The translations under genes were made by a program, and so were the position numbers. From NCBI RefSeq assembly GCF_003334355.1, contig NZ_QOWP01000012.1: a DNA stretch of 64,000 nt. The stretch is one strand, 5' to 3'. Below, piece after piece: positions 8,737 to 64,000 of the stretch; position 1 is the stretch's first letter; each line of letters starts with the position of its first letter. The DNA is from Escherichia coli. Its GTDB lineage: Bacteria > Pseudomonadota > Gammaproteobacteria > Enterobacterales > Enterobacteriaceae. Below the pieces are notes generated by a model, which saw only the letters and a program-made list of their open reading frames with translations, was not told the DNA's origin and did not search any database.

Positions 8737-8835
8737 TGCCTGATGCGGCGTTAACGCCTTATCCGGCCTACAAAGTCCTGCAGATTCAATATATTGCAGG
8801 TACTGCGTAGGCCTGATAAGCGTAGCGCATCAGGC
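8737..8835. repeat. REP/BIME repeat cluster
   Basis: GCCTGATGCGGCGTTAACGCCTTATCCGGCCTAC and TAGGCCTGATAAGCGTAGCGCATCAGGC units between convergent ybiU and ybiT. Confidence 0.7.
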
Positions 8836-24788: not shown

Positions 24789-24817
24789 GTGATAATGCTT
24801 ATCAAAATTATTATCAC
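24789..24817 (+). promoter_or_regulatory. Fur box upstream of fiu
   Basis: GATAATGCTTATCAAAATTATTATCAC resembles the Fur consensus GATAATGATAATCATTATC; lies about 100 bp upstream of the fiu start. Confidence 0.55.
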
Positions 24818-24919
24818 TTGCACAAACACTATCACGGGATTAACAGTGGCATCGCATCCGCAGAGATGCTTTCTCGTGGCAGTGAAAATTTCAACATATA
24901 AGAAAAAGTCACCTGCAAA

Positions 24920-27202
24920 ATGGAAAACAATCGCAATTTCCCTGCCAGACAATTTCATTCGCTCACGTTCTTTGCCGGTCTTTGTATTGGCATCACGCCT
25001 GTGGCTCAGGCACTCGCCGCCGAAGGGCAAACTAACGCGGATGACACGCTGGTTGTCGAAGCATCAACGCCTTCGCTTTATGCGCCACAACAATCTGCCG
25101 ATCCGAAATTCTCGCGTCCGGTAGCGGATACTACCCGCACGATGACGGTAATTTCTGAACAAGTGATTAAAGATCAGGGCGCAACCAACCTTACCGACGC
25201 GCTCAAAAACGTCCCCGGCGTGGGTGCGTTTTTTGCGGGTGAGAACGGTAACTCCACCACTGGCGACGCCATTTATATGCGTGGTGCCGATACCTCTAAC
25301 AGTATTTATATTGATGGCATTCGCGATATCGGCAGCGTCTCGCGCGACACCTTCAATACCGAGCAGGTCGAAGTGATTAAAGGGCCGTCCGGCACCGACT
25401 ACGGGCGCAGCGCACCGACAGGCTCGATCAATATGATCAGCAAGCAGCCGCGCAATGATTCCGGCATTGACGCCTCCGCCAGTATTGGCAGCGCCTGGTT
25501 CCGCCGCGGCACGCTGGACGTCAATCAGGTCATTGGTGATACCACCGCGGTGCGCCTGAATGTAATGGGCGAAAAAACGCACGATGCCGGACGCGACAAA
25601 GTCAAAAATGAGCGTTACGGCGTCGCCCCTTCTGTCGCTTTTGGCCTTGGTACAGCGAATCTTTTGTATCTTAATTATCTGCATGTCACCCAGCACAACA
25701 CGCCAGACGGCGGCATTCCGACCATCGGTTTGCCGGGCTATTCTGCCCCATCTGCGGGAACGGCGGCCCTGAATCATTCCGGAAAAGTTGATACTCATAA
25801 CTTTTACGGCACGGATTCCGATTACGACGATTCGACCACCGACACCGCCACCATGCGTTTTGAGCACGACATCAACGATAACACCACCATTCGCAATACT
25901 ACCCGTTGGTCGCGCGTAAAGCAGGATTACCTGATGACGGCGATTATGGGCGGGGCGTCGAATATTACTCAGCCCACCAGCGATGTGAATAGCTGGACCT
26001 GGTCACGCACGGCGAATACCAAAGATGTGAGTAATAAAATTCTCACCAACCAGACCAACCTGACCTCGACGTTCTATACCGGTTCTATCGGTCATGATGT
26101 CAGTACCGGCGTGGAATTTACCCGTGAAACGCAGACTAACTACGGCGTTAATCCGGTGACGTTACCCGCGGTAAATATTTATCATCCTGACAGCAGCATT
26201 CATCCCGGCGGCCTGACGCGCAACGGCGCAAACGCCAATGGTCAGACGGATACCTTCGCAATTTACGCCTTTGATACGCTGCAAATCACCCGTGATTTTG
26301 AGCTGAACGGCGGGATCCGTCTGGATAATTATCATACTGAATATGACAGTGCCACCGCCTGCGGCGGCAGCGGACGCGGTGCCATCACCTGCCCAACTGG
26401 TGTGGCAAAAGGTTCTCCGGTCACCACCGTCGACACCGCCAAGTCGGGCAATCTGATGAACTGGAAAGCCGGGGCGCTGTATCACCTGACGGAAAACGGC
26501 AATGTCTATATTAACTATGCCGTTTCCCAGCAGCCTCCGGGCGGCAACAACTTCGCCCTTGCGCAGTCTGGCAGCGGTAACAGTGCCAACCGCACCGATT
26601 TTAAACCGCAAAAAGCCAACACCAGCGAGATTGGCACCAAATGGCAGGTTCTGGATAAACGTCTGTTGCTCACCGCCGCGCTGTTCCGCACTGATATCGA
26701 AAATGAAGTTGAGCAAAATGATGACGGAACTTACTCGCAATACGGTAAGAAACGCGTCGAAGGCTATGAGATATCCGTGGCCGGGAATATCACTCCCGCG
26801 TGGCAGGTGATTGGCGGCTATACCCAGCAAAAAGCAACCATCAAAAACGGCAAAGATGTTGCCCAGGATGGTTCCTCATCGCTGCCGTATACCCCGGAGC
26901 ACGCCTTCACCTTATGGAGCCAATATCAGGCAACCGACGATATCTCTGTTGGCGCGGGCGCACGCTATATCGGCAGTATGCATAAAGGTTCAGACGGCGC
27001 GGTGGGAACGCCAGCGTTTACCGAAGGTTACTGGGTCGCCGATGCCAAACTGGGGTATCGAGTTAATCGCAATCTCGACTTCCAGCTAAACGTTTACAAC
27101 CTGTTTGATACCGATTACGTCGCCTCAATCAACAAGAGCGGCTACCGTTATCACCCGGGCGAGCCAAGAACCTTCTTGCTCACAGCCAATATGCATTTCT
27201 GA
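24920..27202 (+). CDS. fiu: TonB-dependent outer membrane receptor for catecholate siderophores
   Basis: 760 aa ORF with signal peptide, TonB box region and C-terminal aromatic residue (NMHF). Confidence 0.9.
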
Positions 27203-27243
27203 ATCAGATGTGGGGCGCAGGCCCCACTTTTTGGAGAAATTGT

Positions 27244-27921
27244 ATGATGTACCACATTCCCGGCGTGTTATCGCCACAGGACGTCGCTCGTTTTCGCGAA
27301 CAACTGGAACAAGCCGAATGGGTGGATGGACGCGTCACCACCGGCGCACAAGGTGCGCAAGTTAAGAACAATCAACAGGTCGACACCCGCAGCACGTTAT
27401 ACGCCGCCCTGCAAAATGAGGTGCTGAACGCGGTTAACCAACATGCTTTATTCTTTGCCGCGGCCTTGCCGCGTACCCTTTCCACGCCGCTGTTTAATCG
27501 CTATCAGAACAATGAAACCTATGGTTTCCATGTGGATGGCGCAGTACGCAGCCATCCACAAAACGGCTGGATGCGTACTGACCTTTCTGCCACGCTGTTT
27601 TTAAGCGATCCACAAAGCTACGACGGCGGCGAACTGGTCGTTAATGACACCTTCGGACAACATCGGGTAAAACTCCCGGCAGGCGATCTCGTGTTGTATC
27701 CCTCCAGCAGCCTGCATTGCGTGACACCCGTAACCCGCGGCGTACGAGTGGCATCATTTATGTGGATCCAGTCGATGATCCGCGATGATAAAAAGCGCGC
27801 CATGCTGTTTGAACTGGACAACAATATTCAGTCGCTGAAAAGCCGCTACGGCGAAAGTGAAGAGATCCTGTCGCTGCTTAATCTTTATCATAATCTGCTG
27901 CGGGAATGGTCGGAGATCTGA
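27244..27921 (+). CDS. ybiX: PKHD-type Fe(II)/2-oxoglutarate-dependent hydroxylase
   Basis: Translation from [13 protein letters not shown] gives 225 aa with HxD...H iron-binding arrangement; directly downstream of fiu. Confidence 0.85.
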
Positions 27922-27994: not shown

Positions 27995-28195
27995 ATGGCA
28001 TCCGGTTGGGCTAACGATGACGCCGTCAACGAACAGATCAACAGTACAATTGAAGATGCGATTGCCCACGCTCGGGGTGAAATTCCGCGCGGCGAAAGCC
28101 TGGATGAATGTGAAGAGTGCGGTGCCCCCATCCCGCAGGCCCGTCGGGAAGCCATTCCTGGCGTGCGCTTATGTATTCATTGTCAGCAGGAGTAA
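27995..28195 (+). CDS. ybiI: DksA/TraR-type C4 zinc-finger protein, 66 aa as encoded here (expected 88 aa)
   Basis: CEECGAPIPQARREAIPGVRLCIHCQ zinc finger. An in-frame TAA at 28193 to 28195 is followed by 21 in-frame sense codons to a second TAA at 28259 to 28261, which would give 88 codons. Confidence 0.6.
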   Translation: MASGWANDDAVNEQINSTIEDAIAHARGEIPRGESLDECEECGAPIPQARREAIPGVRLCIHCQQE

Positions 28196-28525
28196 GATTT
28201 ACAAAAACCAGCTTATACAGGATATAATCGCAGAGGTTCGAAAGACAGCCAGTTACGTTAACTACAACTGGCGAGATGCATAGCGAGTATAATTTGTATT
28301 TTGCGTGTCATTCCGTGCCTTTAACGCTGCTGTGACTGCCACGCGGTATAAAACAAGTTCATAAGTACAACAAATAAATGGTTTATCAGTAGGTTAGATA
28401 TCAATCAATTTATTTGAACAAGGCGGTCAATTCTCTTCGATTTTATCTCTCGTAAAAAAACGTGATACTCATCACATCGACGAAACAACGTCACTTATAC
28501 AAAAATCACCTGCGAGAGATTAATT

Positions 28526-28786
28526 ATGAAAACTATCAATACTGTTGTTGCTGCTATGGCTCTTTCAACTCTGTCATTTGGCGTGTTCGCGGCGGAACCG
28601 GTAACGGCATCCCAGGCACAGAACATGAATAAAATCGGCGTGGTTTCTGCCGATGGCGCATCCACCCTCGATGCCCTGGAAGCGAAACTGGCTGAGAAAG
28701 CCGCGGCAGCCGGTGCCAGTGGATACAGCATCACTTCCGCCACCAACAACAATAAATTAAGCGGTACTGCGGTAATTTATAAGTAA
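28526..28786 (+). CDS. ybiJ: Small periplasmic DUF1471 protein
   Basis: 86 aa ORF with signal peptide ending GTAVIYK; paralog of mcbA. Confidence 0.85.
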   Translation: MKTINTVVAAMALSTLSFGVFAAEPVTASQAQNMNKIGVVSADGASTLDALEAKLAEKAAAAGASGYSITSATNNNKLSGTAVIYK

Positions 28787-28789
28787 TTC

Positions 28790-28915
28790 GTAGGACGGAT
28801 AAGGCGTTTACGCCGCATCCGGCAACAGATGCCTGATGCGACGCTACCGCGTCTTATCAGGCCTACAAAATCCGAACCGTTGGACGGATCAGGCGTTTAC
28901 GCTACGTCCAGCACA
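28790..28915. repeat. REP/BIME repeat cluster (three REP units)
   Basis: GGACGGATAAGGCGTTTACGCCGCATCCGGC, GCCTGATGCGACGCTACCGCGTCTTATCAGGCCTAC and GGACGGATCAGGCGTTTACGCTACGTCC units. Confidence 0.7.
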
Positions 28916-34062: not shown

Positions 34063-34165
<103 letters not shown>

Positions 34166-35807: not shown

Positions 35808-39198
<3,391 letters not shown>

Positions 39199-39206
<8 letters not shown>

Positions 39207-40332
39207 CCCGATCCTGTCCTGGCGTCGCGTACGGGCGCTGTGCGTTAAAGAGACGCGGCAGATCGTTCGCGATCCGAGTAGCTGGCTGATTGCGGTAGTG
39301 ATCCCGCTGCTACTGCTGTTTATTTTTGGTTACGGCATTAACCTCGACTCCAGCAAGCTGCGGGTCGGGATTTTACTGGAACAGCGTAGCGAAGCGGCGC
39401 TGGATTTCACCCACACCATGACCGGTTCGCCCTACATCGACGCCACCATCAGCGATAACCGTCAGGAACTGATCGCCAAAATGCAGGCGGGGAAAATTCG
39501 CGGTCTGGTGGTTATTCCGGTGGATTTTGCGGAACAGATGGAGCGCGCCAACGCCACCGCACCGATTCAGGTGATCACCGACGGCAGTGAGCCGAATACC
39601 GCTAACTTTGTACAGGGGTATGTCGAAGGGATCTGGCAGATCTGGCAAATGCAGCGAGCGGAGGACAACGGGCAGACTTTTGAACCGCTTATTGATGTAC
39701 AAACCCGCTACTGGTTTAACCCGGCGGCGATTAGCCAGCACTTCATTATCCCCGGTGCGGTGACCATTATCATGACGGTCATCGGCGCGATTCTCACCTC
39801 GCTGGTGGTGGCGCGAGAATGGGAACGCGGCACCATGGAGGCTCTGCTCTCTACGGAGATTACCCGCACGGAACTGCTGCTGTGTAAGCTGATCCCTTAT
39901 TACTTTCTCGGGATGCTGGCGATGTTGCTGTGTATGCTGGTGTCAGTGTTTATTCTCGGCGTGCCGTATCGCGGGTCGCTGCTGATTCTGTTTTTTATCT
40001 CCAGCCTGTTTTTACTCAGTACCCTGGGGATGGGGCTGCTGATTTCCACGATTACCCGCAACCAGTTCAATGCCGCTCAGGTCGCCCTGAACGCCGCTTT
40101 TCTGCCGTCGATTATGCTTTCCGGCTTTATTTTTCAGATCGACAGTATGCCCGCGGTGATCCGCGCGGTGACGTACATTATTCCCGCTCGTTATTTCGTC
40201 AGCACCCTGCAAAGCCTGTTCCTCGCCGGGAATATTCCAGTGGTGCTGGTGGTAAACGTGCTGTTTTTGATCGCTTCGGCGGTGATGTTTATCGGCCTGA
40301 CGTGGCTGAAAACCAAACGTCGGCTGGATTAG
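39199..40332 (+). CDS. ybhS: ABC-2 type transporter permease
   Basis: 377 aa hydrophobic ORF overlapping the ybhF stop. Confidence 0.85.
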
Positions 40333-41953: not shown

Positions 41954-42715
41954 ATGCCCGATCAAACACAACAATTTTCGTTCAAGGTGCTCACCATCAA
42001 TATTCACAAAGGCTTTACCGCGTTTAACCGACGCTTCATTTTGCCGGAACTTCGCGACGCCGTGCGTACCGTCAGCGCCGATATTGTTTGCCTGCAGGAA
42101 GTGATGGGCGCGCACGAAGTTCATCCGCTGCATGTGGAAAACTGGCCCGATACCTCGCACTACGAGTTTCTCGCCGACACTATGTGGAGCGATTTTGCCT
42201 ACGGTCGCAATGCCGTATACCCGGAAGGGCATCACGGCAACGCCGTACTGTCGCGTTATCCCATTGAACATTATGAGAATCGCGATGTTTCGGTCGATGG
42301 TGCGGAAAAGCGCGGCGTGCTCTACTGCCGCATTGTGCCGCCGATGACCGGAAAAGCGATTCATGTGATGTGCGTACATCTGGGCCTGCGTGAGGCGCAC
42401 CGTCAGGCGCAGCTTGCGATGCTCGCCGAATGGGTGAATGAGCTACCGGACGGCGAACCGGTATTGGTGGCGGGTGATTTCAATGACTGGCGGCAAAAAG
42501 CTAATCATCCGTTAAAAGTGCAGGCCGGACTGGATGAGATATTTACCCGCGCCCACGGACGCCCGGCGCGCACGTTTCCGGTGCAATTTCCTCTACTACG
42601 TCTGGACAGGATCTACGTCAAAAATGCCAGCGCCAGCGCGCCAACCGCGTTGCCGCTGCAGACATGGCGACACCTTTCTGATCATGCCCCTTTAAGTGCG
42701 GAGATTCATTTATGA
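41954..42715 (+). CDS. ybhP: Endonuclease/exonuclease/phosphatase (EEP) family protein
   Basis: 253 aa ORF recognised as YbhP; stop overlaps the clsB start. Confidence 0.85.
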
Positions 42716-43953
42716 AATGTAGCTGGCGTGAAGGCAATAAGATCGAGTTGCTGGAAAACGGCGAGCAATATTATCCCGCGGTGTTTAAGGCGATTGGCGA
42801 GGCACAAGAACGCATCATTCTTGAAACGTTTATCTGGTTTGAGGATGACGTCGGCAAACAGCTGCATGCGGCACTACTGGCAGCAGCGCAACGCGGGGTT
42901 AAAGCGGAAGTCTTGCTGGATGGCTACGGTTCGCCGGATCTCAGCGATGAGTTTGTCAATGAACTGACGGCAGCTGGCGTGGTATTTCGCTACTACGATC
43001 CCCGCCCTCGCCTTTTTGGTATGCGCACCAATGTGTTTCGCCGGATGCATCGCAAAATTGTGGTGATCGACGCGCGTATCGCCTTTATTGGCGGGCTGAA
43101 TTACTCCGCCGAGCATATGTCCAGCTACGGTCCAGAGGCTAAACAGGATTACGCGGTACGCCTTGAAGGGCCGATTGTCGAAGATATTCTCCAGTTTGAG
43201 CTGGAAAACCTGCCTGGACAGAGCGCGGCACGACGCTGGTGGCGACGTCATCACAAAGCGGAAGAAAATCGCCAGCCGGGAGAAGCGCAGGTATTGCTGG
43301 TCTGGCGCGATAACGAAGAACACCGCGATGATATAGAACGCCACTATCTGAAAATGCTCACTCAGGCGCGGCGGGAAGTCATTATCGCCAACGCCTACTT
43401 CTTCCCCGGCTATCGATTTTTACACGCCTTGCGTAAAGCGGCACGCCGCGGGGTGCGGATCAAACTGATCATTCAGGGCGAACCGGATATGCCGATTGTC
43501 AGAGTCGGCGCGCGCTTGCTGTATAACTATCTGGTTAAAGGCGGCGTTCAGGTGTTTGAGTACCGCCGCCGCCCGCTCCACGGCAAAGTAGCATTGATGG
43601 ACGATCACTGGGCGACAGTAGGGTCCAGTAATCTCGATCCGCTCAGTTTGTCACTGAATCTCGAAGCAAATGTCATCATCCACGATCGTAATTTTAACCA
43701 GACGCTGCGCGATAATCTGAACGGCATTATCGCCGCAGATTGTCAGCAGGTGGATGAAACCATGCTGCCCAAACGCACCTGGTGGAACCTGACCAAAAGC
43801 GTGCTGGCGTTCCACTTTTTACGCCACTTCCCGGCGCTGGTTGGCTGGCTTCCGGCACACACGCCACGTCTGGCGCAGGTTGATCCGCCCGCACAACCGA
43901 CAATGGAAACGCAGGATCGGGTAGAAACTGAAAACACGGGGGTAAAACCCTGA
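42712..43953 (+). CDS. clsB: Cardiolipin synthase B (phospholipase D superfamily)
   Basis: 413 aa ORF with two HKD-type motifs ([17 protein letters not shown]). Confidence 0.9.
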
Positions 43954-44909
43954 TGAGTAAATCACACCCGCGCTGGCGCTTAGCAAAGAAGATCCTCACC
44001 TGGCTGTTTTTTATCGCGGTGATTGTGTTGCTGGTGGTCTACGCCAAAAAAGTGGACTGGGAAGAGGTCTGGAAGGTCATCCGCGACTACAATCGCGTTG
44101 CGCTGCTTAGTGCGGTCGGGCTGGTGGTCGTCAGCTATCTGATTTACGGCTGCTATGACCTGCTCGCCCGCTTTTACTGCGGTCACAAACTGGCGAAGCG
44201 CCAGGTGATGCTGGTGTCGTTTATCTGCTACGCCTTCAACCTGACGCTCAGTACCTGGGTCGGCGGCATTGGTATGCGCTATCGTTTGTACTCTCGTCTG
44301 GGGTTGCCCGGTAGCACTATTACGCGGATTTTCTCGCTCAGTATTACCACCAACTGGCTGGGCTACATTTTACTGGCAGGGATTATCTTTACCGCAGGCG
44401 TGGTGGAGTTGCCGGATCACTGGTATGTCGATCAAACTACGCTGCGTATTCTCGGCATTGGCTTACTGATGATTATCGCGGTTTATTTGTGGTTTTGCGC
44501 TTTCGCGAAGCACCGCCATATGACCATCAAAGGGCAAAAGCTGGTGCTGCCTTCATGGAAATTCGCCCTCGCTCAGATGCTGATTTCCAGCGTTAACTGG
44601 ATGGTAATGGGGGCGATTATCTGGCTGTTACTTGGTCAAAGCGTGAACTATTTCTTTGTACTGGGCGTGTTACTGGTTAGTAGTATTGCTGGCGTCATCG
44701 TGCATATTCCGGCGGGGATCGGTGTGCTGGAAGCGGTGTTTATCGCACTACTGGCTGGGGAGCATACCTCCAAAGGTACAATTATCGCCGCCCTACTCGC
44801 TTACCGTGTGCTGTATTACTTTATCCCACTGCTGCTGGCGCTGATCTGTTACCTGTTGCTGGAAAGCCAGGCGAAGAAGCTACGGGCGAAAAATGAAGCG
44901 GCGATGTGA
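43953..44909 (+). CDS. ybhN: Inner membrane protein YbhN
   Basis: 318 aa polytopic membrane ORF; start overlaps the clsB stop. Confidence 0.85.
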   Translation: MSKSHPRWRLAKKILTWLFFIAVIVLLVVYAKKVDWEEVWKVIRDYNRVALLSAVGLVVVSYLIYGCYDLLARFYCGHKLAKRQVMLVSFICYAFNLTLSTWVGGIGMRYRLYSRLGLPGSTITRIFSLSITTNWLGYILLAGIIFTAGVVELPDHWYVDQTTLRILGIGLLMIIAVYLWFCAFAKHRHMTIKGQKLVLPSWKFALAQMLISSVNWMVMGAIIWLLLGQSVNYFFVLGVLLVSSIAGVIVHIPAGIGVLEAVFIALLAGEHTSKGTIIAALLAYRVLYYFIPLLLALICYLLLESQAKKLRAKNEAAM

Positions 44910-50744: not shown

Positions 50745-50875
50745 TGAAGACAAAGTGCGCGTTGTTTATGCCGGATGCGGCGTGAACGCCTTATCCGGCC
50801 TACAAACCGCGCAAATTCAATATATTGCGGAGAAAATGTAGGCCTGATAAGCGTAGCGCATCAGGCTGTTTTCCG
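50745..50875. repeat. REP/BIME repeat cluster
   Basis: GCCGGATGCGGCGTGAACGCCTTATCCGGCCTAC and TAGGCCTGATAAGCGTAGCGCATCAGGC units between ybhK and uvrB. Confidence 0.7.
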
Positions 50876-53503: not shown

Positions 53504-54181
53504 CTACAACAAGGCAAGGTTTATGTACTTTCCGGTTGCCGCATTTTCTGGATTTTCTGCAAGCCAGGGGATCTCTCCCAGCAGCGGCGCGGGAATCATG
53601 CGGGTGAGCGTGGTCATATATTCAGCGTGACGTTTTCCCGGAGGCGTAACATCGTTCGCCACCCAACCCGCCAGAGTCAGTCCGGCGTGTTGTATTGCCT
53701 GCGCAGTCAACATCGCGTGATTAATACAGCCGAGTTTCACACCAACTACCAGTATCACCGGCAGTTGTTCCTGTGTTACCCAATCTGCAAAAGTGAAAGT
53801 GTCAGAAAGCGGCGTAAACCAGCCGCCAGCACCTTCCACTAACACCCAGTCAGCCTGTTGTTCAAGCGCGCGTAATCCGGCGCTCATTACCAATGATTCT
53901 ATCGGTCTGCCCTCTTGCGCGCTGATGATGTGCGGCGAAGTGGGTTCTGCGAAGGTGTAAGGATTTACTGTTGCGTAATCCAGCTGCAGGCTGCTGTTGC
54001 GCTGTAACGCCAGCGCGTCGCTATTGCGTAAACCTTCCGGGGTCTTTTCGCTGCCAGAGGCGACCGGTTTATAACCTGCCGTCCGGTAGCCTGCTGCCTT
54101 TGCGGCTTGTAAAAGTGCACAACTGGCGACAGTTTTCCCCACTTCGGTATCCGTTCCGGTGACAAAATAACGTTTACTCAC
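53504..54181 (-). CDS. bioD: Dethiobiotin synthetase
   Basis: GTG start gives 225 aa ([17 protein letters not shown]-loop); overlaps the bioC stop. Confidence 0.85.
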
Positions 54182-54929
54182 GAGCAATCACTCCCAAAAA
54201 AAGATGATACGTCAGAGGATATCGCCCCTGCTGTTGCGGCCAGGCCAGTTGCAATCGCTGCAACTGCGAACGCGTTAATATTCGCGGGTCGCGCCCTTCA
54301 TGAAGATGCGTGGCACCGATGCCTTTCAGCGAACGCATGGCACTGAGCGCATCATCAAACCACAGCGTGATGGGCTGAATATGATGTTGATAATGCACGC
54401 CGTTCAGCGACTGTTCGATTTCATCTGGCGGTAAAAAGCGATTAGCATGCGGACGCTCGTCCACCGCCTGCCACGCCTGATGCAGTTCGGGTAACGATCC
54501 CTGCACCAGCGTGGTAAACGCGACCACGCCTTTGGGGCGCACCACCCGATACAGCTCGCGGAGTGCCGTGGATAAATTACCGCACCACTGCACTGCGAGA
54601 TTGCTCCATGCAAGATCGAACGTCGCAGTCGCTAACGGCAGGGATTCGATATCTCCCGCCAGATAATGGTCTGCGGCATCCTTCTGGCGTGCCTGAACAA
54701 GCATTGGCGGCGAGAGATCTAAGGCCGTCACCTGCGCGTGACGTTCCCGCCAGTGGCGGCTCATCCAGCCAGGTCCACAACCCGCGTCCAGTACGTGGGT
54801 GTATTTACGCTGTGGAAGCATTGCCAGTAAGGCGTCAGCACTCTGGCGCTGTAGATCTGCATGTTGCTCATAGTGTGCGGCTGCCCGACCAAATGCCGCT
54901 GCAATGGCTTGTTTATTAACCGTTGCCAT
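54174..54929 (-). CDS. bioC: Malonyl-ACP O-methyltransferase
   Basis: Translation from [17 protein letters not shown] gives 251 aa with SAM-binding LDAGCGPG motif. Confidence 0.9.
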
Positions 54930-56070
54930 GCAGCACCTCCAGCAGACGGTCGATATCCTGCATTTCATGCGCAGCGGTTAGCGTTAAGCGCAGTCGCGCA
55001 GTACCAGCGGGTACGGTTGGCGGGCGAATCGCCGTGACCCAGCAGCCTTGCTGGCGCAGTTTTTCTGCCAGTTGTAACGCACGGCTGTTATCACCGACAA
55101 TCAATGGCTGGATGGCGCTGCATGAATCAGCATGCGTAAACGGCAAATCCTGTACTCCGGCACGAAAACGCGTAATGAGTGCCGCCAGTTTTTCGCGCCG
55201 TGCATCACCCTCATCACTGCGAATGACCGCCAGCGACGCACGTAATGCCTGCGCCTGAGCGGGCGGCATACTGGTGCTGTAGATAAGGTGGCGGGCGAAT
55301 TGCAGCAGATAATCCGCCACCGTACTGGAGCAAAGCACCGCTGCCCCGCTGACGCCAAATCCTTTGCCAAAAGTCACTACCAGCAATTCTGGTTTTACCT
55401 TTTGCAGCCAGCAGCTGCCGCGCCCCTGCTCCCCGATAACGCCCGTGCCGTGGGCATCATCGACCATCAACCAGCCATTGTGCTGTTGCGTTACCTGCTG
55501 GATTTCCGCCAGTGGCGCACTATCGCCGTCCATGCTGAACACGCCTTCTGTCACCACCATTTGCTGCCCCGGACAGGGGGAAGCAAGCAGTCGCGCCAGA
55601 TGAGTGACATCGTTATGAACAAAACGGCGAAGCTGCGACGGGCTTAAACTGGCAGCCTCCAGCAATGAGGCATGGCTAAGCCGGTCGGCAACAATACGGT
55701 CCTCTTTCGCCATCATCGCGGCAATGACCGCCTGATTAGCGGCAAAACCAGAGATAAACAGCAGTGCCCGCGAATAGCCCAGCCACTCGGCCAGTTCTTC
55801 TTCCAGCGCCTGATGTGCCACGCTATAACCGCTGACGTGACCGGAGCCGCCGCTACCGACGCCAAATTGCTCCGCACTCTGCTTCCAGGCACGGATAATT
55901 TGCGGATGATGGCTTAAACCTAAATAATCGTTACTGGAAAAGTTCAGATACTGGCGATCGTCCGCCACCAGCCAGCGTCCTGCTCCTTGCGCCACTGGAT
56001 AACGGCGACGCAGGGCATCGGCAGCACGCCGCGCATCGAGGGCCGCGTTGATTTTATCCTGCCAGCTCAT
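54916..56070 (-). CDS. bioF: 8-amino-7-oxononanoate synthase
   Basis: 384 aa PLP-dependent aminotransferase-fold ORF; overlaps the bioC start. Confidence 0.9.
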
Positions 56071-57107
56071 AGTGCTGCCGCGTTGTAATATTCGTCAGTG
56101 TCCGGGGTCATCAGTGCCTGTTCCAGACGCTGCTGTTGTTCGTTATCGCCCGCCAGCACGGCAGTTTGCTGCGGATTTAGCCCCAGTTTGCGGAACAGTT
56201 GCAGGTCTTTATCTTCTTCCGGATTCGGCGTGGTCAGCAGTTTGCAACCGTAGAAAATCGAGTTTGCGCCTGCCATAAAGCACATCGCCTGAGTCTGTTC
56301 GTTCATCTGCTCGCGTCCGGCAGAAAGGCGCACGTAAGAGGTTGGCATCATGATCCGCGCGACCGCAATGGTGCGAATAAAATCAAAGGCATCGACATCA
56401 TCGTTATCGGCAAGCGGCGTGCCTTTCACCTTCACCAGCATGTTGATTGGCACGCTTTCCGGCGGCGTCGGCAGGTTTGCCAGTTGCAGCAATAATCCGG
56501 CGCGATCTTTTACCGTTTCGCCTAAGCCCACAATGCCGCCAGAACAGACTTTGATCCCGGCATCGCGCACTTTTTCCAGCGTATCGAGGCGTTCCTGATA
56601 AGTGCGTGTGGTGATGATATTGCCGTAAAACTCCGGCGAGGTGTCCAGGTTGTGGTTGTAGTAATCCAGCCCGGCGTTCGCGAGGCGCTGCGCCTGAGAT
56701 TCACTCAACGTGCCCAGCGTCATACACGCCTCCAGCCCCATCGCTTTTACCCCCTGCACCATTTGTTCCAGGTACGGCATATCGCGTTCGTGGGGATTCT
56801 TCCACGCCGCGCCCATACAGAAGCGCGTCGATCCTGCCGCTTTCGCTTTGCGCGCCGACTCCAGCACCTGTTCAACTTCCATCAACCGCTCGGCTTCCAG
56901 CCCGGTTTTGTAGCGCGAGCTTTGCGGGCAGTATTTGCAATCTTCCGGACAAGCTCCGGTCTTAATCGACAGCAAAGTGCTGACCTGCACCTGACGAGGA
57001 TCGAAATGCTGTCGATGTACCTGCTGCGCTTCAAACAGCAGATCCAGCAACGGTTTTTCAAATAATTCTGTGACTTGCGACAATGTCCAGCGTGGGCGGT
57101 GAGCCAT
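56067..57107 (-). CDS. bioB: Biotin synthase (radical SAM)
   Basis: 346 aa ORF with CPEDCKYC radical-SAM motif. Confidence 0.9.
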
Positions 57108-57151
57108 GGGGCTTCTCCAAAACGTGTTTTTTGTTGTTAATTCGGTGTAGA

Positions 57152-57187
57152 CTTGTAAACCTAAATCTTTTCAATTTGGTTTACAAG
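57152..57187. promoter_or_regulatory. bio operator (BirA-binding palindrome) between divergent bioB and bioA
   Basis: TTGTAAACC...GGTTTACAA imperfect inverted repeat of about 36 bp centred between the bioB and bioA starts. Confidence 0.7.
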
Positions 57188-57193
57188 TCGATT

Positions 57194-58483
57194 ATGACAA
57201 CGGACGATCTTGCCTTTGACCAACGCCATATCTGGCACCCATACACATCCATGACCTCCCCTCTGCCGGTTTATCCGGTCGCGAGCGCCGAAGGTTGCGA
57301 GCTAATTTTGTCTGACGGCAGACGCCTGGTTGACGGTATGTCGTCCTGGTGGGCGGCGATCCACGGCTATAATCACCCGCAGCTTAATGCGGCGATGAAG
57401 TCGCAAATTGATGCTATGTCGCATGTGATGTTTGGCGGTATCACCCATGCGCCCGCCATCGAGCTATGCCGCAAACTGGTGGCAATGACGCCGCAACCGC
57501 TGGAATGCGTTTTTCTCGCGGACTCCGGCTCCGTAGCGGTGGAAGTGGCGATGAAAATGGCGTTGCAGTACTGGCAGGCCAAAGGCGAAGCGCGCCAGCG
57601 TTTTCTGACCTTCCGCAATGGTTATCATGGCGATACCTTTGGCGCGATGTCGGTGTGCGATCCGGACAACTCAATGCACAGCCTGTGGAAAGGCTATCTG
57701 CCAGAAAACTTGTTTGCTCCCGCCCCACAAAGCCGTATGGATGGCGAATGGGATGAGCGCGATATGGTGGGCTTTGCCCGCCTGATGGCGGCGCATCGTC
57801 ATGAAATCGCGGCGGTGATCATTGAGCCGATTGTCCAGGGCGCAGGCGGGATGCGCATGTACCATCCGGAATGGTTAAAACGAATCCGCAAAATATGCGA
57901 TCGCGAAGGTATCTTGCTGATTGCCGACGAGATCGCCACTGGATTTGGTCGTACCGGGAAACTGTTTGCCTGTGAACATGCAGAAATCGCGCCGGACATT
58001 TTGTGCCTCGGTAAAGCCTTAACCGGCGGCACAATGACCCTTTCCGCCACACTCACCACGCGCGAGGTTGCAGAAACCATCAGTAACGGTGAAGCCGGTT
58101 GCTTTATGCATGGGCCAACTTTTATGGGCAATCCGCTGGCCTGCGCGGCAGCAAACGCCAGCCTGGCGATTCTCGAATCTGGCGACTGGCAGCAACAGGT
58201 GGCGGATATTGAAGTACAGCTGCGCGAGCAACTTGCCCCCGCCCGTGATGCCGAAATGGTTGCCGATGTGCGCGTACTGGGGGCCATTGGCGTGGTCGAA
58301 ACCACTCATCCGGTGAATATGGCGGCGCTGCAAAAATTCTTTGTCGAACAGGGTGTCTGGATCCGGCCTTTTGGCAAACTGATTTACCTGATGCCGCCCT
58401 ATATTATTCTCCCGCAACAGTTGCAGCGTCTGACCGCAGCGGTTAACCGCGCGGTACAGGATGAAACATTTTTTTGCCAATAA
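57194..58483 (+). CDS. bioA: Adenosylmethionine-8-amino-7-oxononanoate aminotransferase
   Basis: Translation from [20 protein letters not shown] gives 429 aa; the ORF-track 37-aa extension covers the operator and is rejected. Confidence 0.9.
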
Positions 58484-59169: not shown

Positions 59170-60453
59170 GTGAACACATTTTCAGTTTCCCGTCTGGCGC
59201 TGGCATTGGCTTTTGGCGTGACGCTGACCGCCTGTAGCTCAACCCCGCCCGATCAACGTCCTTCTGATCAAACCGCGCCTGGTACCTCTTCTCGCCCGAT
59301 TCTGTCGGCAAAAGAAGCGCAGAATTTCGATGCTCAACACTATTTTGCATCCCTGACACCAGGTGCTGCAGCGTGGAATCCTTCCCCGATTACCCTGCCT
59401 GCGCAACCTGAATTTGTTGTCGGCCCGGCGGGCACTCAAGGTGTAACGCATACCACGATTCAGGCGGCGGTAGATGCGGCAATTATCAAGCGTACCAACA
59501 AGCGCCAATATATTGCCGTGATGCCTGGTGAGTATCAGGGAACGGTATATGTCCCTGCCGCTCCGGGTGGAATTACTCTGTACGGTACAGGTGAAAAACC
59601 GATTGATGTGAAGATTGGGCTTTCCCTTGATGGTGGCATGAGCCCTGCCGACTGGCGTCACGACGTCAACCCGCGCGGCAAATATATGCCAGGTAAACCA
59701 GCGTGGTATATGTACGATAGCTGCCAGAGCAAACGCAGCGACAGTATCGGTGTTCTCTGCTCTGCGGTCTTCTGGTCACAAAACAATGGCCTGCAACTGC
59801 AAAATCTGACCATCGAAAACACGCTGGGCGATATCGTAGATGCAGGTAACCATCCGGCGGTGGCACTGCGTACTGATGGTGACCAGGTACAGATTAACAA
59901 CGTTAACATTCTCGGTCGTCAGAACACCTTCTTTGTCACCAACAGCGGTGTGCAGAACCGTCTGGAAACGAATCGTCAGCCGCGTACGCTGGTGACCAAC
60001 AGCTACATTGAAGGGGATGTGGATATCGTTTCTGGTCGCGGCGCAGTGGTGTTCGATAACACCGAATTCCGCGTGGTGAACTCACGTACTCAGCAAGAAG
60101 CGTATGTGTTTGCACCGGCTACGCTGTCCAACATTTACTACGGTTTCCTCGCCGTAAACAGCCGTTTCAATGCTTTCGGTGATGGTGTGGCGCAACTGGG
60201 CCGCTCGCTGGATGTTGATGCCAATACCAACGGTCAGGTGGTGATCCGTGATAGCGCCATCAACGAAGGTTTTAACACGGCTAAACCGTGGGCCGATGCG
60301 GTGATCTCTAATCGTCCGTTTGCGGGTAATACCGGCAGCGTAGATGATAACGACGAAATACAGCGCAATCTGAATGACACTAACTACAACCGCATGTGGG
60401 AATACAATAACCGCGGCGTGGGTAGTAAAGTGGTTGCAGAGGCGAAGAAGTAA
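59170..60453 (+). CDS. ybhC: Outer membrane lipoprotein, pectinesterase-like
   Basis: 427 aa ORF with lipoprotein signal peptide and lipobox (LTAC). Confidence 0.85.
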   Translation: MNTFSVSRLALALAFGVTLTACSSTPPDQRPSDQTAPGTSSRPILSAKEAQNFDAQHYFASLTPGAAAWNPSPITLPAQPEFVVGPAGTQGVTHTTIQAAVDAAIIKRTNKRQYIAVMPGEYQGTVYVPAAPGGITLYGTGEKPIDVKIGLSLDGGMSPADWRHDVNPRGKYMPGKPAWYMYDSCQSKRSDSIGVLCSAVFWSQNNGLQLQNLTIENTLGDIVDAGNHPAVALRTDGDQVQINNVNILGRQNTFFVTNSGVQNRLETNRQPRTLVTNSYIEGDVDIVSGRGAVVFDNTEFRVVNSRTQQEAYVFAPATLSNIYYGFLAVNSRFNAFGDGVAQLGRSLDVDANTNGQVVIRDSAINEGFNTAKPWADAVISNRPFAGNTGSVDDNDEIQRNLNDTNYNRMWEYNNRGVGSKVVAEAKK

Positions 60454-60461
60454 GAGCAATT

Positions 60462-60686
<225 letters not shown>

Positions 60687-60690
<4 letters not shown>

Positions 60691-62948
60691 ATCTGACGGT
60701 TTTTATTGAAGTTAATCAAACTACCCGCCTTGATAATCTCGCGCTCTTCAGCAGTCAGACTTTCCATATAGAGCGTAATTTCCGTTACCGGCGCATCTTC
60801 ATGGATCACATAACCTTTAAACGTCGTACCCGGATTATCCAGCGCCGCTTTAATGCCAGGGATGTAAATGTAATCCCCCACTTCAAAGGTTGGCACTTCC
60901 GCCATCTGCAGCGGTAACATCCCCCAGTTGATGACGTTAGAACGGTAGCGTTTAGTCGCGTACTCTTCGGCAATATTCGCCAGACCGCCAATCACACGCT
61001 GGCAGCTCGCCGCCTGTTCACGCGCAGAACCATCGCCTGGTTTCACCGCATATACCATGCTGCCAATTTCAGTTTGCAGCGGATCAATATGCTCCTGACC
61101 AGCAATCTGCTTAATGCGCGCAAACACCTCTGTCAGCTCGCTGACATTCCCCGCCAGACGCTGATTTTCCAGCTCAGCAGTCGCTTTACTTCTGCCAACA
61201 TAACCGGGATCGCGGCGTGACAGGGTAAACTCCGCCGGACCAATCGGATTTGAACGATAAGAAGAGGTTTCACCGGAAGGAATCAGTTCGTCGGTGGTGG
61301 TCACTTCGTCGAGGATCTTCGAGCACACTTTCAGGACGATATTGTCAGTCAGCGCACCCAATTCCGGCCAGTCTTTAATGTTCGGTCCGTAAATCAGCGG
61401 TTGCTGAGTTGCCCCTTTCACAAAGCCCTGATAAACACGGTTTTTATACGGCGTTACATCGAAGGCGTACTCCGGCACGTTGTCCCAGCAATCAAGTTCG
61501 CTGGCAGAGGTTAAATAGCCACCGTTTGCCGCAGTCGCAGCGATAGAACGAGCGTCCATCAACGCCACCGCTGACATCTGCCCATTAGCTGGCTTAGAGC
61601 CTTCGCGGTTCGGGAAGTTGCGCGTGGTGTGGCGAATACTTAATCCGTTGTTGATTGGCGTATCGCCCGCGTCAAAGCATGGGCCGCAGAACGCGGTTCT
61701 GATGATTGCGCCTGCGCCAATCAAATCTGCTACCACACCTTTTTTGGCGAGATCCATAAACACCGGCTGTGATGACGGGTAAACTGCCAGCGAGAAGGTG
61801 TCATTGCCACAGGATTGACCGCGCAGTGCATTCGCCGCCGCGATGACGTTTTCGTAGTTACCGCCAGAACAGCCCGCGATAATCCCCTGCTGCACTTTCA
61901 GGCGACCATTTTCCACTTTATCCAGCAGCGAGAGTTTGGCTTTACCGTGCGCCACGCGTTCGGACTCAATTTCAATCTCACGCAGAATGTCGGTCAGGTT
62001 CTGGTTCAGTGTGTCGATTTCATACACGTTGCTCGGGTGGAACGGCAGCGCAATCATTGGTTTGATGGCGCTTAAATCAACGCTGATGCAGCCATCGTAG
62101 TACGCCATCGGTTGAGGGTTAAGCTGGCAGTAATCCTGGCCGCGACCGTGCAGCGCCAGCCAGTTATGGACTTCTTCATCGGTTTGCCAGACAGAACTTA
62201 AACAGGTCGTTTCAGTGGTCATAACGTCAACGCTGTTACGGAAATCGGTAGAGAGCGCAGCAACACCGGGACCTACGAATTCCATCACTTTGTTTTTGAC
62301 GTAGCCGTTTTTGAACACGGCACCGATGATAGCCAGCGCCACATCCTGCGGCCCCACATACGGCGCTGGTTTTCCGGTCAGATGCACCGCAACAACTCCC
62401 GGATAGTCGATATCCCAGGTGTCATTAAGCAGCTGTTTTACCAACTCACCGCCGCCCTCACCGACTGCCATTGTCCCTAATGCACCGTAACGGGTGTGGC
62501 TGTCTGACCCGAGGATCATTTTGCCGCCGCCTGCCATCATCTCACGCATATATTGATGGATGACCGCAATATGCGGAGGCACAAAAATACCGCCATAACG
62601 CTGAGCTGCCGATAAACCAAAAACATGGTCATCACCGTTAATGGTGCCGCCGACGGCGCAGAGTGAGTTATGGCAGTTGGTCAGCACATACGGCAGCGGG
62701 AAACGTTCCATTCCGGACGCTTTAGCGGTCTGTACAATACCAACAAAGGTAATATCGTGAGAGGCTAATGAATCAAACTTAATTTTAAGTTTATCCATAT
62801 TTCCGGACGTATTATGAGAAGAGAGAATAGACCAGGCAATAGTGCCTTTTTTGGCTTCTTCTTTTTTAATTTCGCCGGTGAAATGTTCTTCGGCAATTAT
62901 TTCGTTATTACTGGCGAGAAACACGCCTTTTTCAGATAACTTGATCAT
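60687..62948 (-). CDS. ybhJ: Aconitase-family protein
   Basis: Translation from [11 protein letters not shown] gives 753 aa with aconitase-like Cys-containing regions. Confidence 0.8.
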
Positions 62949-63002
62949 CAAATGCTCCAGATATCTGCGCACCGTGAAGTGCGCAGAAAGATAATAAATG
63001 GA

Positions 63003-63136
63003 TATACTCTAAATAATTCGAGTTGCAGGAAGGCGACAAGTGAGTGAATCCCCAGGAGCTTACATAAGTAAGTGACTGGGGTGAGCGAACGCAAACGCAG
63101 CACATGCAACTTGAAGTATGACGAGTATATTTACAG
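63003..63136. repeat. ERIC (enterobacterial repetitive intergenic consensus / IRU) element
   Basis: GTGAATCCCCAGGAGCTTACATAAGTAAGTGACTGGGGTGAGCG core matches the ERIC consensus as I recall it; lies between ybhJ and ybhI. Confidence 0.8.
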
Positions 63137-63842
63137 CATGTTCCAGCCGATCAGCATATTCCACCACCACACGCCGAGGGTGATATGCACCAGGAAGGTT
63201 AATATCGTCAGTACCGCACCGACCAACCACCAGGATTTAATATCGTTATAACCCACGCCAAAGATGACCGGACCTGCCGCGCCGCCATAGTGAGTAACCA
63301 TGCCGCCATAGGAGTTGGAGAACAACAGTGCCAGCGCGGTTAACATTAACGGTGCGCCGGAGACGTTCGCCAGCATGGCAAATACCGGTAACATAGCAAC
63401 GATATAGGCACTACCGGAAGCGAAGAAATAACGCACGATAATGCTGAGGAAAATAATAACGAAGAAAGCAACGTTACCGTGACCATCAAATGCCAGGTTA
63501 TTTTTAAAGACTTCAGCTAACCATTCGAAGAATTTAACTTTCGATAATAAGGAGCTTAAGCCGATAATACCGCCGTACCAGATTAAGGTATTCCAGCCGC
63601 CTTTATTTTTAACCACGTCTTCCCAGGTAACGATACCCAGCAGCAGCATGGTTGCCATAACAACGATTGCCACGGTGGATTCATCAACCCCCAGAGACTT
63701 ACTGAAAATCCAGCCCAGCAGCGCCAGCACAAAGACACCGAGCAGCATTTTTTCGCGGATTTTCATCGGTCCTAGTTCGGCAAGGCCCGCTTTAGCGATG
63801 GTTTTGTTATCCACCTTCTTAATTTCTGGTGGATACATGGTG
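63131..63842 (-). pseudogene. ybhI: 3' fragment (about 236 codons) of DASS-family anion transporter gene ybhI, interrupted by an insertion sequence
   Basis: Translation is the C-terminal half of a DASS (CitT-like) transporter; expected full length about 477 aa; upstream of 63842 the sequence switches to IS10-type DNA. Confidence 0.75.
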
Positions 63843-64000
63843 CTGAGAGATCCCCTCATAATTTCCCCAAAACGTAACCATGTGTGAATAGATTTTGAGT
63901 AAGCAGGGTTGCAGCCACGAGTGAGTCTTCCCTTGTTATTGTGTAGCCAGAATGCCGCAAAACTTCCATGCCTAAGCGAACTGTTGAGAGTACGTTTCGA
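63843..64000 (-). mobile_element. IS10-family (IS4 superfamily) insertion sequence, inside end and 3' part; continues beyond the window
   Basis: Terminus CTGAGAGATCCCCTCATAATTTCCCC matches the IS10 inside end as I recall it; adjacent minus-strand frame encodes the IS10-type transposase C-terminus. Confidence 0.8.
63856..64000 (-). CDS. IS10-type transposase, C-terminal 47 codons (5' part outside the window)
   Basis: Minus-strand translation RNVLSTVRLGMEVLRHSGYTITREDSLVAATLLTQNLFTHGYVLGKL-stop, near-identical to the IS10 transposase C-terminus as I recall it. Confidence 0.75.
   Translation of the reverse strand, partial: RNVLSTVRLGMEVLRHSGYTITREDSLVAATLLTQNLFTHGYVLGKL

Follow-up and report, generated by a model that had tools for sequence, protein, structure and literature searches.

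The window, by which we mean the whole 64,000 nt stretch of DNA that was analysed, is 99.7% identical to Escherichia coli MG1655 over 61.7 kb and is a K-12-like E. coli chromosome segment. It contains the gene order fiu-ybiX-ybiI-ybiJ, which is that of the YbiI orthologue group and of the same locus in K-12. The features at this locus are as follows.

24920-27202, + strand: fiu, iron-regulated, upstream of ybiI, intact
27244-27921, + strand: ybiX, iron-regulated, upstream of ybiI, intact
27995-28195, + strand: truncated ybiI ORF, 66 codons and the premature TAA; ATG at 27995; product MASGW...CIHCQQE
28067-28069, + strand: codon 25 of ybiI, CAC (His) against CGC (Arg) in K-12; SNP 28068 G>A
28109-28183, + strand: C4 zinc-ribbon segment, with C39, C42, C60 and C63 all retained
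28193-28195, + strand: premature TAA stop; derived SNP 28193 A>T, Lys67 AAA>TAA; the next base is G (TAAG)
28196-28261, + strand: ybiI remnant, codons 68-88 and the original TAA, by comparison with K-12
28526-28786, + strand: ybiJ, downstream of ybiI, intact

The ybiI frame is interrupted by TAA directly after codon 66 and then continues through 21 sense codons (DLQKPAYTGYNRRGSKDSQLR) until the next TAA, at 28259-28261, as the preliminary description of this DNA had reported. The length of 88 codons that it gave for YbiI is also correct. The full 267 nt frame has 88 codons, the length of K-12 YbiI (WP_000146343.1), and an 88 aa CDS is annotated in MG1655 and other genomes. The frame aligns end to end with an annotated 88 aa ybiI in 5,421 of 5,426 complete E. 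coli genomes, where the gene is named 'C4-type zinc finger protein YbiI' (WP_000146343.1; MG1655 and thousands of genomes). Unexpectedly for a core gene of the chromosome, ybiI is also matched over its full length in two plasmid records among the complete genomes.

There are two base differences between ybiI in the window and in MG1655, 28068 G>A (R25H) and 28193 A>T (K67*), so that the K-12 gene is 99.3% identical at the DNA level and residues 1-66 are the same except for R25H. Over the 6.3 kb around ybiI, the window and K-12 differ at four positions. Codon 67 is a sense codon (Lys67) in K-12, whereas in the window it is a stop and residues 67-88 are untranslated. The ancestral codon is AAA (Lys) in every relative examined, and comparison with K-12 and these relatives bears out the suggestion that the stop arose by a single base change, here AAA>TAA. 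The 66 nt beyond the premature stop are the same as in K-12, base for base, and the open frame past the stop is therefore not due to chance. There is no in-frame ATG, GTG or TTG within the remnant at 28196-28261, so the tail is not separately translated. The original stop codon of ybiI lies within an inverted repeat with a 9 bp stem (GCCAGTTAC...GTAACTGGC) at 28248-28272, which is out of reach of ribosomes that terminate at the early stop.

A stop codon created by one base could stem from faulty sequencing or assembly of the source genome, the organism really carrying AAA, and its absence from all 5,426 complete genomes would fit such an error. However, the public protein collection contains the exact 66 aa His25 product, in Logan assemblies only, and it is encoded in four runs: ERR4578542, SRR3823860, SRR25039422 and SRR25039423. 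Over 1.0-6.8 kb, these contigs match the window with 100% identity, the private haplotype (24824 A, 25662 T, 27203 A and 28068 A) included. All of them end near 28815, just after ybiJ, because of the REP-type repeat (Rfam naRNA4) at 28793-28863. The same base and haplotype in four independent run assemblies, from three unrelated accession series (ERR4578542; SRR3823860; SRR25039422/3), exclude a base-call error in one assembly. Additionally, an A>T change in non-repetitive sequence is not typical of systematic error. We therefore consider an error extremely unlikely. K67* is a genuine allele, the agreement among assemblies standing in for read support.

The allele is rare. The best match to the 267 nt ybiI frame among the 5,421 complete genomes is 99.3% identical, which corresponds to two mismatches. 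We used a 55-mer with T at its centre, which is unable to seed on wild-type DNA, as an allele-specific query. It matched none of the 5,426 complete E. coli genomes, while the control 55-mer with A (wild type) matched in 5,263. Thus no reference allele in this set has TAA at codon 67, and the claim that the stop is premature stands. Exact-match scans for the allele found none in 100,044 species-representative (GTDB) genomes and none in JGI metagenome contigs. The exact 66 aa H25 product is present on 5 contigs, compared with at least 1,000 for the wild type.

The allele is also young. The three nearest complete genomes (PSS-12, VG1046-3E9 and NCTC9967) differ from the window at 8-10 positions in 20 kb and all have AAA at codon 67. 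Two closer relatives, in ERZ27278217 (8 differences in 13 kb) and ERR9845305 (5 differences in 8 kb), carry R25H together with AAA at codon 67. R25H therefore arose before K67* in this lineage. The ancestral ORF is thus intact in all five of these closest relatives and the stop is derived. The remnant at 28196-28261 is undecayed, in frame and still identical to K-12, which indicates that the stop is recent. R25H (CGC>CAC) with a full-length ybiI is also found at four places on backgrounds that differ from the window by approximately 2%, which means either recurrence or transfer by recombination.

The 21 undamaged in-frame codons downstream of the stop might alternatively mean that ribosomes get past it, through programmed readthrough or with the help of an ochre suppressor tRNA, and continue to produce full-length YbiI. 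Any recent mutation would leave the remnant intact, however. A suppressor tRNA was looked for in the window and none was found, there being no tRNA gene at all in this stretch. Moreover, termination in E. coli is particularly efficient at TAA when the next base is G. Continued production of full-length YbiI by this route is very improbable.

Among the 58 K-12 genes fully mapped on the window, damage is confined to ybiI. The other 57 have no internal stop and are intact and unchanged in length, so that this is an isolated nonsense SNP and not general gene decay. Decay of the kind seen in Shigella was considered and rejected, since no mapped gene other than ybiI is damaged and synteny with K-12 is not broken by any IS element. 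A mutator or mutagenised strain was likewise rejected; the few lineage-private changes in 20 kb are two synonymous changes, one intergenic change and the stop. With 264 nt separating the original ybiI stop from an intact ybiJ, the early stop should have no polar effect.

The 66 aa product retains the zinc ribbon. The codons for all four zinc-binding cysteines are present (C39, 28109-11; C42, 28118-20; C60, 28172-74; and C63, 28181-83), as the preliminary description had noted, and they form the CxxC-(17)-CxxC four-cysteine zinc ribbon of the DksA/TraR family (PF01258). The Pfam zf-dskA_traR match covers residues 39-66 of the product (E 1e-11). The product also scores 117.9 bits against the YbiI equivalog NCBIfam NF008243, over profile positions 1-66 of 88, which is above the curated cut-off of 96 bits; full-length YbiI scores 160.5 bits. 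With the zinc ribbon kept and the family cut-off passed, some residual or altered activity of the truncated YbiI is conceivable.

What is missing from the product is the C-terminal part. The orthologues in E. albertii, Citrobacter, Enterobacter, Salmonella and Pseudenterobacter are all 88 aa in length. Within them residues 76-88 (GYNRRGSKDSQLR) are near-invariant, more so than the linker at residues 68-75, and are the most conserved segment of YbiI. This points to strong purifying selection on the tail across enteric genera, as judged from sequence conservation. In the window this tail, which together with the length of 88 residues characterizes the YbiI orthologue group, is encoded past the stop. 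An AF2 model of full-length YbiI has a helix at residues 61-70 and leaves residues 71-88 unstructured. The model was built from a 16-sequence alignment, has a low overall confidence (mean pLDDT 61) and was used only for placing the 61-70 helix. The stop at codon 67 falls within this predicted helix. The earlier suggestion that the truncated product could still fold thus needs a qualification: the cysteines are kept, but the stop lies inside the predicted C-terminal helix and the most conserved segment (76-88) is gone.

Comparison with the characterized members of the family gives an indication of what this loss may mean. Wild-type YbiI has its own NMR structure (PDB 2KGO). Its zinc ribbon and flanking helices have homologous counterparts in F-plasmid TraR (73 aa; PDB 5W1S and 6N57), a small secondary-channel regulator of RNA polymerase (RNAP); the phmmer E value between the two is 5.5e-10 (E about 1e-9 to 1e-10), and DksA is more distant. 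[quoted passage not shown] TraR has twelve residues after its last cysteine, making up the full C helix, whereas truncated YbiI ends three residues after C63 and so lacks most of the counterpart of the RNAP-contacting helix that follows the second CxxC in DksA/TraR regulators. TraR does not have the conserved GYNRRGSKDSQLR tail of YbiI. At the other end of the protein, D3, D6 and A8 of TraR, which form the DxxDxA tip motif of TraR/DksA-like regulators, align with S3, A6 and D8 of YbiI (residues 7-12 are NDDAVN). The motif is absent from wild-type YbiI as well as from the truncated product, so that full-length YbiI, too, falls outside the canonical TraR-type regulators.

Some information on the role of YbiI is available from the literature. 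Evidence for an effect on transcription is indirect and consists of one report, given as 'data not shown', that dksA auxotrophy is rescued when YbiI is expressed at a high level (PMC2613031). Transcription of ybiI starts from a promoter of its own, which is sigma-S-preferring (PMC4447067), and serum induces ybiI along with fiu and ybiX (PMC4145685).

Taken together, the data show that the window carries a real, recent and rare K67* nonsense polymorphism (AAA>TAA, 28193) in the chromosomal ybiI of a K-12-like lineage, and they suggest that its product is most likely impaired. We put the probability of this reading at about 0.88. Translation would end 22 codons early at the efficient TAA-G stop. 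The resulting 66-residue product would keep the N-terminal segment and the four-cysteine zinc ribbon, and would lack both the GYNRRGSKDSQLR tail and most of the C-terminal helix, the counterpart of the helix with which TraR contacts RNAP. Because the C-helix contact is needed in TraR and the tail of YbiI is conserved, the truncated protein is most likely partly or fully non-functional. On the same grounds, tail conservation and the analogy with TraR, the 66 aa product is probably impaired in the role of YbiI, and it is unlikely that normal function is kept. If the product is non-functional, ybiI in this strain would be an incipient pseudogene.

Truncations of ybiI are also found elsewhere. The same A>T change occurs in SRR13787052, where codon 25 is Arg, there are 119 differences from the window in 7.9 kb and the stop is flanked by polymorphisms at 28174 and 28213. 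K67* in this run is of independent origin, on another background. Other true nonsense alleles, established by reading the DNA at 12 places, affect codons 65, 71 and 77, and several of them are in NCBI assemblies. These are Q65* (CAG>TAG; 64 aa, e.g. CTW11489.1), which is present on two backgrounds; K71* (AAA>TAA; 70 aa, WP_338265782.1); and Y77* (76 aa, WP_407803755.1), which has arisen by two mutations, TAT>TAG and TAT>TAA. Like K67*, they are rare single-base nonsense changes located past the zinc finger, some of them on different backgrounds. They differ from it in that they are represented in NCBI assemblies and named protein records, whereas the K67* product is found only in Logan assemblies. 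C-terminal nonsense alleles of ybiI are therefore a recurrent class of rare polymorphisms.

The number of such alleles cannot be taken directly from the protein collection. Look-ups of YbiI prefixes gave products of 62-65, 69, 70 and 76 aa, and nothing in the public protein collection matched at lengths of 67, 68 or 71 aa. The 43 contigs listed for a '66 aa R25' product were rejected as an allele frequency, because at nine of the ten places read the contig ends within a wild-type gene, leaving 198 nt and no stop; SRR13787052 was the only true K67* of the ten. Many short 'YbiI' proteins in the collection (15 places) come from wild-type genes in which the contig ends 0-2 nt into the next codon. 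One of these places (L020) has GAA (K67E) at codon 67. The contig breaks within ybiI are non-uniform and may lie at segregating sites where the assembly graphs of mixed samples split.

The recurrence of stops just past the zinc finger raises the question of whether truncation could be adaptive. A short, TraR-sized YbiI with altered activity, either a gain of function or relief from an inhibitory tail, might be favoured in some niches. This would account for the position of the stops, for the second occurrence of K67* on the divergent background of SRR13787052 and for the true Q65*, K71* and Y77* alleles, some of which are on two backgrounds. All of these truncation alleles keep the four cysteines, and F-plasmid TraR naturally lacks the GYNRRGSKDSQLR tail. 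However, each allele is very rare, as the counts for the H25 66 aa product (5 contigs against at least 1,000 for the wild type) and for K67* (none of 5,426 complete genomes) illustrate. With so many E. coli sequenced, neutral mutation is expected to strike every one-step nonsense site repeatedly, and such recurrence is as predicted for mutations that are neutral or mildly deleterious. That the stops seem to cluster in the tail is due to ascertainment, since the products of earlier stops are too short to be called. Additionally, the near-invariance of the tail across genera points to purifying selection, and the 66 aa product is about 10 residues shorter than TraR after the last cysteine and so is not TraR-like in the key helix. 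We therefore regard an adaptive truncation as unlikely. The more specific proposal, that the recurrent stops (Q65*, K67* twice, K71* and Y77* by two mutations) reflect repeated selection for a tail-less YbiI and that GYNRRGSKDSQLR is a regulatory or autoinhibitory module, is more doubtful still. If it were true, the tail-less protein might regulate RNAP differently under iron limitation or in stationary phase.

An impaired product of a recent, rare nonsense mutation remains the preferred reading. The feature is ordinary natural damage to a known gene and is of little importance past annotation. The annotation of ybiI in this strain should record the internal stop (K67*) rather than present a normal 66 aa gene. 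The allele could also serve as a natural truncation mutant that separates the zinc ribbon from the near-invariant C-terminal tail.

A scan for promoters and terminators revealed nothing that alters the interpretation of the ybiI stop. Several other observations were made on the surrounding DNA. A Fur-box-like sequence (GTGATAATGCTTATCAAAATTATTATCAC) lies upstream of fiu at 24789-24817, and differences from K-12 are clustered just downstream of it, at 24820, 24824, 24826 and 24867. The change at 24824 (G>A) is private to the lineage with the ybiI stop; the base is G in ERR9845305 and in the three nearest complete genomes. Within fiu, R248L (25662 G>T, codon 248) is a difference from K-12 that is common to PSS-12 but not to the other near relatives. 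A strong terminator-like hairpin (GTGGGGCGCAGGCCCCAC) followed by TTTTT is located at 27203-27227, immediately past the fiu stop and before ybiX, and the difference from K-12 at 27203 (T>A) is one base past the fiu stop.

REP-type repeats (Rfam naRNA4, ES036) are present at 1981-2058, 28793-28863 and 60522-60592, and also at 8772-8814, 34099-34141 and 50804-50845. The first of these overlaps 1997-2099, a 103 bp stretch between moeB and fsa that is inserted relative to MG1655. Finally, divergence from K-12 is mosaic across the window, with 20-50 SNPs per 2 kb in some blocks (1-2000, 38001-40000, 42001-44000, 54001-58000 and 60001-64000) and 0-3 in the long stretches between them. This block-wise distribution of SNPs suggests recombination tracts. 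There are 25 differences from K-12 in ybhF, all of them synonymous, and bioF has eight amino acid changes relative to K-12.
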